Notes: a model not told the origin generated them from the letters alone. 64,000 bases of DNA from an uncultured Candidatus Saccharibacteria bacterium (GCA_964401135.1 CAYNXC010000002.1:16457-80456), one strand, 5' to 3'; counted from the stretch's first letter, positions 61,439 through 63,982 are shown. Numbers and translations: made by a program.

Positions 61439-62575
61439 GTGACGACTCTGACACAATTTTTTGGGCGCGTACGCATTGATTGGGTCCTCTTCTGCGCCGT
61501 GCTCCCGCTCCTTGCCGCTGGGCTGGTAACAATGGAGTCGTTTGAGAGTGGAGCGGATTACTTTTTTGTGCGGCAATTAGTGTGGGTACTCATTTCAGTC
61601 GCAACATTCCTTTTCGTGAGTGCGGTAGACTGGCGTTTTTTGAAGCGCAGCGGCGTGTTGACAGGACTATTTATTGCGATGGCGCTTGTGCTCCTTGCCC
61701 TTTTTGGCCTGGCGCACACGGTGCGTGGCGTGCAGAGTTGGCTCATCTTTGGCGGGGTCTCTTTTCAACCGGCTGATTTTGCGAAGCTTATCTTAATTAT
61801 CCTTCTCGCAAAATATTTTTCTCGTCGACATATTGAGATCGCCAATGTCCGCCATATCCTAGTCTCTGGTGTGTACGCATTTATCTTTTTTATACTCGTC
61901 TTTCTTCAGCCAGATTTTGGCTCTGCGATGATTATTTTTGCCATCTGGTTGGGTATGGTACTGGTGTCGGGGATTAGTAAACGGCACTTACTTATTGTGT
62001 TTCTGATTGGAGTGGCGACATTTCTCTTCGCGTGGACGAGCGTTTTGGAGGATTATCAAAAGGCGCGTATAGAAACTTTCTTAGACCCACTCTCCGATAT
62101 CCGCGGCTCCGGCTACAATGTGTACCAGAGTATGATTGCCGTTGGGTCGGGTCAGCTGGTGGGAAAGGGAGTTGGACTGGGAACACAATCTCGACTCAAG
62201 TTCTTGCCAGAGTACCAGACTGATTTTATTTTTGCAGCCTTTGCCGAGGAGTGGGGCTTTGTAGGGGTAATTATCCTTTTCTTACTCTACGGTATTGCCT
62301 TCTGGAGAATTATTGTGACTGCGCGACAGGGAGCGACTAATTTTGAGTCGTTCTATGGACTGGGTATCGCCATAATGTTTTTGAGTCACTTTGTGATCCA
62401 TGTGGGGATGAACATAGGACTCCTGCCTGTCACGGGCTTGCCGCTCCCCTTTATGAGCTACGGCGGGTCACACCTTCTGATGGAGTTTGTTGCTCTTGGT
62501 ATCCTTATGAGTCAGCGCCGCTACACGCGTGCCTTTCACCGCGACGACATGCAGAATGAGTTTGTGGGGGTATAA
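61439..62575 (+). CDS. ftsW: SEDS-family peptidoglycan glycosyltransferase FtsW/RodA (GTG start)
   Basis: 10 TMs; conserved loop VGSGQLVGKG...QSRLKFLPE...DFIFAAFAEEWGF. Confidence 0.8.
   Translation: MTTLTQFFGRVRIDWVLFCAVLPLLAAGLVTMESFESGADYFFVRQLVWVLISVATFLFVSAVDWRFLKRSGVLTGLFIAMALVLLALFGLAHTVRGVQSWLIFGGVSFQPADFAKLILIILLAKYFSRRHIEIANVRHILVSGVYAFIFFILVFLQPDFGSAMIIFAIWLGMVLVSGISKRHLLIVFLIGVATFLFAWTSVLEDYQKARIETFLDPLSDIRGSGYNVYQSMIAVGSGQLVGKGVGLGTQSRLKFLPEYQTDFIFAAFAEEWGFVGVIILFLLYGIAFWRIIVTARQGATNFESFYGLGIAIMFLSHFVIHVGMNIGLLPVTGLPLPFMSYGGSHLLMEFVALGILMSQRRYTRAFHRDDMQNEFVGV
62524..62575. repeat. ~52-bp direct repeat, copy A (3' end of ftsW); copy B at 63331..63382
   Basis: cacgcgtgcctttcaccgcgacgacatgcagaatgagtttgtgggggtataa vs cacgcgggccttccaccgcgacgacatgcagaatgagtttgtaggggtgtga (~47/52). 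Confidence 0.7.
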
Positions 62576-62592
62576 ATAAAATATGGCTTAAC

Positions 62593-62613
62593 TATGGAGG
62601 TGAGACTTCCATC
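62593..62613. repeat. REP-like palindrome, degenerate, inverted orientation (overlaps RAYT stop codon)
   Basis: tatggaggtgagacttccatc (19/21 to revcomp of the REP consensus). Confidence 0.6.
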
Positions 62614-63262
62614 AATCAATGGATAACTCGTTATGACTCGAGTCTTCGCGTTCTTGTGCAAGCCAATCGAGAGTCTCTTGATAAAATCGTTCAGGCGTCT
62701 CAAACCATTGAGAAAGAAAGGATGTATCAACAACTTTTATACGACCATTATCATATGCACCGTCCTTCTTAGATAAATAATCTTGGAAACTTGACCAAGG
62801 GTAGGTGATAATGGAAGTCTCACTTCCATCAAAAGGATTACTATGAATGTAATGAGGGAGCCAATTAAAGTGCTCGTCAGAGATCACTGGCTTAGACTTG
62901 AACCTCCCTTGGAAAAGTGCACCGACTCGACTGTATCTCAAGTTAAAATAATTAGTATAACCAGTGCCAAGTTTTCTCATAAACTTAGTAAGCCCATATT
63001 CAACTCGTTGCCGTATCATAAGGTGGTAATGATTTGGCATTAAGCAATAAGCCATCAGCTCAACTAGTTGCCCATCCAATTCATGGCTAAGTGATGGAAG
63101 TCTCACTTCCATCAGACGGTGTGCGTTTGGATCAGTTGCTTCGGTAGAGTTAAAAAGTATTAAGGATGCAATAAAACGAGATCGATCGGCATCATCTAAA
63201 AATATGTCTCTTTTTTCAACCCCTCTATTATAGATATGAAAAATTGTGTCTGTATCATCCAT
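62612..63262 (-). CDS. REP-associated tyrosine transposase (RAYT; IS200/Y1-like transposase_17 family)
   Basis: HuH motif YCLMPNHYHLMI, catalytic Tyr region (RVGALFQGRF), YPWSS motif; 216 aa. Confidence 0.8.
   Translation of the reverse strand: MDDTDTIFHIYNRGVEKRDIFLDDADRSRFIASLILFNSTEATDPNAHRLMEVRLPSLSHELDGQLVELMAYCLMPNHYHLMIRQRVEYGLTKFMRKLGTGYTNYFNLRYSRVGALFQGRFKSKPVISDEHFNWLPHYIHSNPFDGSETSIITYPWSSFQDYLSKKDGAYDNGRIKVVDTSFLSQWFETPERFYQETLDWLAQEREDSSHNELSID
62810..62830. repeat. REP palindrome copy inside RAYT coding sequence
   Basis: aatggaagtctcacttccatc (20/21); translated on minus strand as DGSETSI. Confidence 0.65.
63093..63113. repeat. REP palindrome copy inside RAYT coding sequence (perfect)
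   Basis: gatggaagtctcacttccatc; translated on minus strand in another frame as LMEVRLPS. Confidence 0.7.
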
Positions 63263-63276
63263 GCGTCTCTATTATT

Positions 63277-63297
63277 GATGGAAGTCTCACTTCCATC
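63277..63297. repeat. REP palindrome copy ~15 nt upstream of RAYT start codon (perfect)
   Basis: gatggaagtctcacttccatc. Confidence 0.7.
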
Positions 63298-63330
63298 AGA
63301 GTGAGGTGAATAGGATAGATGATGCTGCCA

Positions 63331-63382
63331 CACGCGGGCCTTCCACCGCGACGACATGCAGAATGAGTTTGTAGGGGTGTGA
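63331..63382. repeat. ~52-bp direct repeat, copy B (duplicate of ftsW 3' end) between RAYT and the convergent pilin gene
   Basis: See 62524..62575. Confidence 0.7.
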
Positions 63383-63388
63383 TCAGGA

Positions 63389-63982
63389 TTACTTGCAGGG
63401 CATACCCCAGGTGACTGTTCTATCCTTAGCATTTGTGGATGAGTTATCTTCTGGATTATAATCATACTTCTTACCATCACAGAGAATCACCCCATCAGAC
63501 CCTTCAGACGGGTTTATCATCTTTTCTAGTTTAAATACAATCATATAACATGCGCCGTTTGGACAATAGTTACCCGATGAGTATTGTGAATAATATGCGT
63601 AGATAAAATTATTACCCGTATCATTAGTAGGAGGATTCTTACTAGAGACAGCTGTATTTATTGGATCAGTAGGAAGTTTCGGAAGATATTTTGACAAATT
63701 ACTCTGCAATGAGTCCCATTCTGCAGGCACATTGCTTTTCAGCCAGCCGCTGCTGATGGTAACATGTGGATAATGCCCATTATCAGCACGATATAATTCT
63801 AACGCATTCATTATCTGTCTCACCTCCTGAAGTCTTTTTGTATCCCTCGCCTTCTTTCTCGCATCATCCACACTCACCAATACAATAGACGAAAGTACCC
63901 CAATGATGCCAATCACGACCAAGAGTTCTATGAGGGTAAAACCCGTCTTACGGGACGGGCCCCATACATTTACATGCGCCAT
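63389..63982 (-). CDS. Type IV pilin (class III signal RKTG|FTLIELLVVIGIIGVL), likely major pilin
   Basis: Prepilin N-terminus, C-terminal Cys pair (CPNGAC ... C...C). Confidence 0.75.
   Translation of the reverse strand: MAHVNVWGPSRKTGFTLIELLVVIGIIGVLSSIVLVSVDDARKKARDTKRLQEVRQIMNALELYRADNGHYPHVTISSGWLKSNVPAEWDSLQSNLSKYLPKLPTDPINTAVSSKNPPTNDTGNNFIYAYYSQYSSGNYCPNGACYMIVFKLEKMINPSEGSDGVILCDGKKYDYNPEDNSSTNAKDRTVTWGMPCK

Follow-up and report, generated by a model that had tools for sequence, protein, structure and literature searches.

A gene for a transposase resembling the tyrosine transposases associated with repetitive extragenic palindromes (REPs), or RAYTs, of an uncultured, ultra-small Candidatus Saccharibacteria bacterium carries copies of one short palindrome upstream of its start, at its stop codon and, twice, inside its own open reading frame (ORF). 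The gene lies in a stretch of 64,000 nt (GCA_964401135.1 CAYNXC010000002.1:16457-80456), referred to here as the window. RAYTs are, to our knowledge, a textbook example of a domesticated transposase whose function is still unknown. The locus was compared with 84 homologous loci at 37-87% protein identity; 80 distant family loci (37-62%) come from metagenomes. Within a genome the internal copies are kept the same as the external ones, and the consensus itself drifts from one genome to the next. The locus is best described as a REPtron-like unit whose cognate palindromes are kept uniform and are probably autoregulatory; this reading is held with moderate confidence, and its regulatory step is the weakest part.

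The locus and its palindromes

The transposase gene and its palindromes occupy the following positions, counted from the first letter of the window.

62612-63262, minus strand: RAYT-like Y1 HUH transposase ORF of 216 aa that contains YCLMPNHYHLMI, with a Pfam and a fold match
63023-63031: codons of the HuH motif (H78-Y-H80), inside the RAYT-like ORF
62849-62851: codon of the catalytic-type Tyr138 (YIHSNP), inside the RAYT-like ORF
63277-63297, no strand: REP-U, perfect, 10-bp stem and 3-nt loop; it ends 14 nt before the ATG at 63262 and abuts a -10-like AATAAT
63093-63113, no strand: REP-S1, perfect, inside the ORF, encoding L50-MEVRLP-S57 (LMEVRLPS)
62810-62830, no strand: REP-S2, one mismatch, 8-bp stem, inside the ORF in another frame, encoding D145-GSETS-I151, just past the Tyr motif
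62593-62613, no strand: REP-D, degenerate, two mismatches, opposite loop orientation, overlapping the TGA stop at 62612-62614
62581-62592, minus strand: tail motif GTTAAGCCATAT, immediately 3′ of REP-D as the gene is read; in related genomes it is also found behind flanking as well as dispersed copies

The palindrome reads GATGGAAGT-CTC-ACTTCCATC. With up to three mismatches its 21-mer GATGGAAGTCTCACTTCCATC occurs at exactly four sites in the 64 kb, where shuffled sequences are expected to hold none, and the core TGGAAGTNNNACTTCCA with up to two mismatches adds no further site in the 64 kb. A sequence-only reading of the window had described a 216-aa RAYT with four palindromes, two of them translated in different frames, and both the coordinates and the mismatch search agree with it in every factual statement. 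REP-U and REP-S1 are 100% identical over 25 nt, and the two outer copies together make up a terminal inverted repeat of 23 nt (96%). Three of the four copies have strong single-stranded folds (-6.4 to -8.9 kcal/mol, z -4.6 to -5.8). The counterpart of REP-D is perfect in the relatives L016, L033, L035, and L030, and in the clade of the window the TGA stop falls within TGATGG.

Conservation of the internal palindromes

Close relatives harbor four or five copies each, at the same positions as in the window. Within the clade at 62-87% identity all members carry both internal copies, termed S1 and S2, with a constant spacing of 283 nt except in L038, its most distant member. Across the survey the S1 site forms a perfect hairpin with a 3-nt loop in 38 of the 84 loci, down to 38% protein identity, and the loop center lies at query residue 54 in frame 0 in 36 of these 38. 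A hairpin is found at the S2 site in 18 loci (query residues 145-148, mostly frame 1), and eight loci have both. Beyond the S1 and S2 sites, no palindrome of the locus family lies elsewhere in any ORF of the 84 loci.

The internal copies follow the flanking copies of their own locus. In 28 of 34 loci the 9-nt S1 arm agrees at all nine positions with the arm of a flanking palindrome at that locus, and in 33 of 34 at eight or more. Between loci, 9/9 identity amounts to 2.8%, and the observed within-locus count is reached by none of 10000 permutations. The sequence-only reading had taken the intragenic and flanking palindromes for one element and had called its presence inside an ORF unusual, and both statements hold. 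In the close clade, the arms of S1 and S2 differ at 0-4 of 36 positions versus 14-39% for the remaining gene sites; the arms evolve at least ten-fold slower than the rest of the gene. Third codon positions within the arms are constrained as much as the other codon positions, and in L033 a compensatory change from G-C to A-T in the S1 arm comes at the cost of an S57L replacement.

In an ungapped alignment of the 38 S1 hairpins, 13 of the 15 stem pairs show two-sided changes (105 cells), and the covariation score of the stems is reached by 0 of 500 shuffles. One-sided changes of the G-U type are absent from the nine inner pairs of these loci, which were picked for perfect stems of at least 6 bp. 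Two-sided changes without G-U intermediates point to a Watson-Crick palindrome, as expected for an element that acts at the DNA level. In distant loci the S1 stem extends to up to 17 bp and differs in sequence from lineage to lineage, and the peptide at the S1 columns changes with it: EVxLP (EVGLP), EVKPR, EVxPP (EVQPP), YEIGSR, or SIEIPFQ. The peptide is dictated by the DNA palindrome. The sequence-only reading had named conserved native RAYT sequence as a finding that would speak against its interpretation. Conservation is indeed seen at the level of the alignment, but it is the DNA palindrome that is conserved and not the peptide.

Where S1 is missing, the same columns contain a comparable stretch, often K-E/D-I-K. 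The peptide (G/R)GS(T/E)TSI that the palindrome encodes at S2 stands in place of the usual PEWREGKIKNY and is not added to it. A rough neighbor-joining tree clusters the S1 and S2 characters, but about 14 changes are needed for each. The flanking palindromes of loci without S1 mostly have other cores (GATTC, GATTT, GGTTT, GGTGT); GAAAT-core flanking palindromes occur in L080 and L082, both without S1, and in L084, which retains it. Judged by this distribution, S1 and S2 are old, positionally homologous features of the family that are repeatedly lost or occasionally regained, and not recent insertions in the window.

More elaborate arrangements are seen at single loci. L063 has two nested palindrome families around one gene (U96/D+38 vs U57/S2), L067 has 22-bp stems in very long nested palindromes at both flanks, and in L107 (1512-1560) two adjacent S1 hairpins jointly form a larger palindrome of 17 bp.

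Structure and classification of the transposase

The protein scores 32.6 bits with the Pfam model Y1_Tnp (PF01797; cutoff 23), which aligns residues 67-141 with model positions 41-120. Its score of 35 bits with the NCBIfam equivalog REP_Tyr_transpos (NF047646) stays below the cutoff of 80 and places it outside that equivalog. The AlphaFold model (mean predicted local distance difference test score, pLDDT, 77.7; predicted template-modeling score, pTM, 0.78) takes on the expected core of β-α-β-β-α-β-α, with Y138 on helix 129-140. In an alignment of 24 sequences N77, H78, H80, Y138, I139, H140, N142, and the W156-S-S tail are invariant, and Y79 lies between the two histidines. Of the solved structures, the E. 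coli RAYT in complex with a REP hairpin (4er8_A; E 5.7e-5, TM 0.48/0.61) is the best match, with IS608 TnpA and ISDra2 TnpA next. A sequence-profile search of solved structures gives only a marginal match in the HuH region (E 0.99), which is unusable for placing insertions relative to 4ER8. The profile match above the cutoff, the HuH motif with a single Tyr on the following helix, and the TnpA/RAYT-like fold place the protein in the Y1 HUH superfamily. The Pfam score and the match to 4er8_A also bear out the RAYT identity that the sequence-only reading had proposed, as a RAYT-like enzyme in a REPtron-like setting.

The Tyr motif is YIHSNP in the window protein and YIHLNP in the family consensus. 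Both are of the Y---NP type, which puts the protein in the RAYT-like class 2 defined by Quentin et al. 2018 (PMC6006769). By visual comparison with Table 1 there, the motif set NHYH, FQ, YIH[LS]NP, and SS tail, all present in the family consensus, fits subclass 2.1 (Bertels group 1, TIRYT). A Pfam scan of the transposase finds no helix-turn-helix (HTH) tail domain.

In the AlphaFold model LMEVRLPS is housed in a linker of about 30 residues between helix 24-36 and strand 67-74. The sequence-only reading had regarded this segment as extra compared to canonical Y1 cores; the linker, and the restriction of the Pfam alignment to residues 67-141, agree with that view. The model is weak at both internal-palindrome sites (pLDDT below 50 at residues 52-56; mean 69 for residues 141-150). 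The location of S1 and S2 in two weakly ordered linkers, one before the HuH strand and one after the Tyr helix, suggests that the protein tolerates any peptide the palindrome dictates. Apparent conserved peptide motifs such as EVxLP and GGSTSI can be shadows of a constraint on the DNA, which is relevant for annotation and structure prediction.

Flanking palindromes and dispersed copies

Matching palindromes upstream and/or downstream of the gene, as in a REPtron, are present in at least 59 of the 84 loci. A -10-like hexamer follows the upstream hairpin within 0-17 nt in 43 of 56 loci, and 19 of these also have an upstream TG; on the 5′ side of the upstream hairpins, taken as a control, such a hexamer occurs in 12 of 55, one with a TG. 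A consensus promoter and terminator scan of the window locus gives nothing convincing at the hairpins, and the promoter argument is therefore based on the family-wide count. The downstream copy lies on or just past the stop codon, about -20 to +46 nt from it.

Across the family the orientation of the loop flips freely between copies and between orthologues (GAG/CTC, CGG/CCG). The S1 loop of the window (63102-63104) is inverted from GAG to CTC in L016 (7134-7136), L033 (5153-5155), and L035 (2770-2772), changing EVRL to EVSL and leaving stem and tail unchanged. In the clade of the window the 3′ tail, (A/G)TTAAGCCAT, keeps its side despite the loop flips. Loops that flip beside a tail that stays point to in situ loop inversion by hairpin template-switching. 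The tail, as (A/G)TT(A/G)AGCCAT(A/T)T, also adjoins dispersed copies in L011, L013, L019, L021, L022, and L025, and a diverged copy of it follows S1, giving LSH in translation. The tail may correspond to the GTAG foot or guide of classical REPs. The flanks of all copies lack a GT[AG]G foot, and the tail motif TTAAGCCATAT is not enriched in the window (two matches, 1.2 expected).

Dispersed copies of the palindrome are few. Candidatus Vogelbacteria MHTL01 has five copies at the gene and four elsewhere, and the metagenome-assembled genome CAYITB01 four at the gene and three elsewhere; the dispersed ones are mostly lone hairpins just outside ORFs, without the gene. Another eight distant copies are found in 113 kb flanking 15 other family loci. 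According to the sequence-only reading, a 21-mer occurring only here would not be a dispersed REP. Such confinement is true for the 64-kb window and fails in these two related genomes, which hold three to four dispersed exact copies each.

An identical palindrome, extended to 27-29 nt (cATTGATGGAAGTGAGACTTCCATCAATg), is present in several genera of Flavobacteriaceae (L012 6204-6224; L014, L020, L023, L024, L026, L027, L029). It occurs once per genome, inside a 535-aa ORF, and is read as IDGSETSIN, the S2 peptide of the window. An Rfam scan of two of these loci gives no family match. The Flavobacteriaceae palindrome is treated as unrelated or unexplained, being either a chance match or a related in-frame element.

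Genomic location and the duplicated rodA/ftsW end

The family is large: among 6013 candidates gathered by a word filter, 5948 are relatives at E ≤1e-3, nearly all of 210-250 aa. The few named ones belong to Patescibacteria (Giovannonibacteria, Liptonbacteria, Brennerbacteria, and similar), and the assignment to this group is based on these names and on those of genome records. On all 23 contigs with the exact protein, which come from many samples, the gene has a type IV pilin-like gene on one side and rodA/ftsW on the other. Conversely, all 23 contigs bearing the exact rodA protein also bear the RAYT-like gene, and an empty site, with rodA beside the pilin gene and no RAYT-like gene, is not seen among them. 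The same order (rodA - RAYT - pilin) is kept in relatives at 87%, 75%, and 71% protein identity and in the relative L030. With one context in all contigs read, the gene appears to be fixed, vertically inherited, and single-copy.

The two copies of a 55-nt direct repeat made from the 3′ end of rodA/ftsW enclose the cassette (62517-62571 and 63324-63378, 91% identical); the sequence-only reading had not noted them.

62517-62575, plus strand: functional rodA/ftsW 3′ end with the first repeat copy; gene 61439-62575
63324-63382, plus strand: relic rodA 3′ end with the second repeat copy, reading TRAFHRDDMQNEFVGV and a stop; TGA at 63380-63382, 6 nt from the convergent pilin stop

Both ends read TRAFHRDDMQNEFVGV and a stop from Thr363 on. 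Three of the five mismatches of the repeat lie in this stretch and are all synonymous, as are two more differences just beyond the repeat, in the last Val codon and the stop codon. The remaining two mismatches, together with one base just upstream, fall into the three codons before Thr363, where the relic has CCH vs RRY. The relic stop, close to that of the pilin gene, looks like the ancestral gene end. The same duplication is present in L016 (45 nt; 6819-6863/7650-7694), where the repeated unit consists of palindrome, tail, and rodA end, and in L033 (62 nt; 4874-4935/5678-5739). Substitutions that tell the genomes apart are common to the two ends of each (C and G for the window, T for L016), which indicates that the ends evolve in concert.

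The neighboring gene (63389-63982, minus strand) encodes a type IV pilin-like protein (N_methyl, T2SSG). The pilin/glycosyltransferase block varies among samples of one species: the pilin has 194 or 197 aa, the glycosyltransferase 375 or 386 aa, and a 68-aa ORF is present or absent depending on the sample. A 16-nt inverted match (94%) between 62469-62484, in the rodA coding sequence (HLLMEF), and 63108-63123, at the S1 flank (HRLMEV), is probably due to chance.

Proposed mechanism and alternatives

The locus would represent one REPtron-like unit in a very large family of class-2 Y1 HUH (RAYT-like) transposases that is specific to Patescibacteria. Its cognate element would be a perfect, short Watson-Crick palindrome in which a 9-10-bp stem closes a 3-nt loop. 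All copies are presumed to be substrates of the encoded HUH enzyme, which, by homology with 4ER8, would bind the folded hairpin in single-stranded DNA. The need to remain substrates of the same protein would hold the copies uniform. Their correction could be mediated by the enzyme or by short-tract gene conversion, together with hairpin template-switching, which would flip the loops too. The copies at the promoter, in the ORF, and at the stop codon would act in cis and keep the expression of the nuclease low, either as bound sites or roadblocks on the DNA or as stable hairpins in the mRNA. In E. coli, REPs near stop codons are known to restrain expression, as are the hairpins of IS200.

Several points weigh against this proposal. 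The palindrome is barely dispersed, with no copy in the other 63 kb of the window, and REP-D of the window is degenerate and folds weakly (-2.3 kcal/mol, z -0.5). In 36 of the 84 loci neither internal copy is present yet the flanking palindromes are kept, so the internal copies are dispensable for the protein. The selection of loci for perfect stems inflates the pairing of the inner pairs in the covariation test. Recombinational homogenization alone could keep the palindrome copies alike; the rodA repeat, which is not a REP, also evolves in concert. Finally, binding, cleavage, and regulation are all inferred.

The strongest alternative, a real but clearly lesser possibility, is that the internal palindromes are functionless passengers in permissive linkers, kept perfect and uniform by template-switching and short-tract gene conversion alone. 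The concerted evolution of the rodA ends strengthens it, as it reveals short-tract homogenization at the locus that acts independently of REP sequence. Loops that flip freely between flanks that stay are typical of template-switching, and both the weak modeling of the S1 and S2 linkers and the absence of both copies from 36 loci fit sites without a function. Gene conversion within a genome, however, does not explain conservation between genomes, and the arm GATGGAAGT is kept across species whose genes differ by up to 39%. The position and frame of the internal copies are also fixed down to 38% identity, and the outer copies lie consistently at the promoter and the stop codon.

A stronger version of the proposed autoregulation, considered rather unlikely, holds that the in-ORF palindromes are obligatory cis sites. 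The enzyme would bind or nick its own gene at REP-U, S1, S2, and REP-D, either for autoregulation at the DNA level or because the gene serves as a protected master copy that seeds and corrects the few REPs of the genome. If this were true, the specificity of the protein and its in-ORF target would be physically locked and would co-evolve, and the thousands of family members would be a natural read-out of the hairpin-recognition code of Y1 HUH enzymes.

It is improbable that the locus is an autonomous IS200-like insertion sequence (IS), an 807-bp unit that moved into the 3′ end of rodA with the flanking palindromes as its ends and the internal ones as alternative ends. The 23-nt terminal inverted repeat would suit such ends, the cassette is bracketed by the duplicated end of the putative target gene, and L038, at 62% identity, has no rodA 3′ end downstream of its gene. 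IS200/IS605 elements, however, are not known to produce a target duplication. The gene is single-copy, syntenic, and fixed, without an empty site among the 23 contigs, and dispersed copies of the palindrome are lone hairpins without the gene. The Tyr motif is Y---NP (class 2) and not the Y---Q of IS200 (PMC6006769, Table 1).

On the model suggested by the sequence-only reading, S1 and S2 would be fresh in-frame insertions of a mobile REP that report current RAYT activity. This history is largely refuted and retains very little probability. In 36 of 38 loci S1 keeps the same column in the same frame; S2 is found again in 18, where it replaces the usual linker. With S1 present, the linker that joins helix A to the HuH strand is only five residues longer at the median (40.5 vs 35), as an insertion would make it, but S2-bearing linkers are shorter (median 19 vs 27). 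The complete identity of REP-U and S1 over 25 nt and the documented in-frame REPs in tnpA_REP genes of subclass 2.4 (PMC6006769) also speak for insertion. On the other side stand the presence of both copies in all clade members at 62-87% identity, with the 283-nt spacing kept except in L038, and the invariance of the exact gene in 23 contigs from many samples. The sequence-only reading is partly supported overall, as it had the right element and the right oddity but the wrong history; autoregulation, which it also suggested, is still a reasonable idea.

A coincidence, in which the conserved peptide xEVxLP happens to have self-complementary coding, is refuted: V53 and L55 reach at least 90% conservation in the alignment of 24 sequences, but the peptide alters whenever the stem alters (EVxPP, YEIGSR, SIEIPFQ), third codon positions are no less constrained than the others, and the same string recurs outside the ORF at the same locus.

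Other candidates were dropped for want of evidence, namely a switch by inversion between the two internal copies (the gene is intact in all contigs), intrinsic termination at S1 (which no T-run follows), and a CRISPR-like array (spacing and content do not fit).

Under the favored reading of a REPtron-like unit, the presumed DNA target is written into the reading frame of the enzyme itself at two fixed places, in genome-reduced Patescibacteria with almost no dispersed REPs. The in-ORF palindromes suggest a testable circuit of self-regulation. As the in-ORF target tracks the external copies over deep divergence, the family would offer hundreds of matched protein/hairpin pairs from which recognition rules can be derived.

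Comparison with known systems

In IS200 elements the hairpins at the left end serve as transposase sites and also regulate tnpA expression in cis. The locus resembles these elements in having hairpins, presumably recognized by the Y1 enzyme, at places where the enzyme's own transcription or translation can be limited. IS200 hairpins, in contrast, lie outside the coding sequence, and IS200 is a multi-copy IS. Compared to IS200/IS605 in general, the locus has neither the Y---Q motif nor multiple near-identical copies, being found in one context in all contigs. In phiX174 gene A and pT181 repC, the nick site or origin of an HUH enzyme lies inside the enzyme's own gene. The embedding of the DNA site, here a presumed one, in the ORF is shared, but those enzymes are replication initiators with one origin, whereas no replication role is indicated here.

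The E. coli REPtron, in which TnpA_REP is flanked by REPs or bacterial interspersed mosaic elements (BIMEs) (PDB 4ER8; PMC3479197, PMC6006769), has the Y1 HUH fold and the Y---NP motif in common with the locus. In both, a single-copy gene is flanked by its own hairpins, with more copies elsewhere in the genome, which for this family are the few dispersed ones of related genomes. The locus differs in the absence of a GT[AG]G foot, in its short perfect stems with a 3-nt loop, in the copies within the ORF, and in copy number, with a handful of copies rather than hundreds and no REPIN doublets seen.

Quentin et al. 2018 describe in-frame REPs inside tnpA_REP, located between HuH and Tyr, and call them a "unique feature of subclass 2.4" (PMC6006769). 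There the insertions vary in length and sequence, the motifs are NH[IFV]H, WQ, and YIxNNP, and the hosts are Cyanobacteria and Bacteroidetes (PMC6006769). The likeness lies in cognate REPs that sit in peripheral, tolerant parts of the transposase and leave the frame intact. The window protein falls outside this subclass, with NHYH, FQ, and YIHSNP, S1 before HuH, and S2 after Tyr. Its palindromes occupy two fixed sites in a fixed frame and co-vary with the flanking copies across the family.

Subclass 2.1 (Bertels group 1, TIRYT) is described as lacking REP-like hairpins and as having terminal inverted repeats that carry GGGGWSAS (PMC6006769, PMC5581495, PMC3733652), with about 12 flanking 16-mer occurrences per replicon (PMC5581495). 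The motifs NH[YF]H, FQ, Y[IV]HLNP, and SS tail, a length of about 238 aa, and low-copy flanking repeats in the form of terminal inverted repeats link the family to it. The flanks are palindromic hairpins here, however, and no HTH tail is detected by Pfam, compared to a C-terminal HTH-like domain in subclass 2.1.

A literature search for RAYTs or for this family in genomes of the candidate phyla radiation found nothing relevant. Di Nocera et al. 2013 (PMC3733652) reported REPs that lie within other genes, and with the in-frame REPs in RAYT genes of subclass 2.4 (PMC6006769) the general phenomenon is already known. What sets the present case apart is its occurrence in a different subclass, one described as without REPs, in a different phylum and without a GTAG foot. 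Further differences are the two fixed in-frame sites outside the HuH-Tyr interval, their family-wide co-variation with the flanks, and the near-absence of dispersed REPs.

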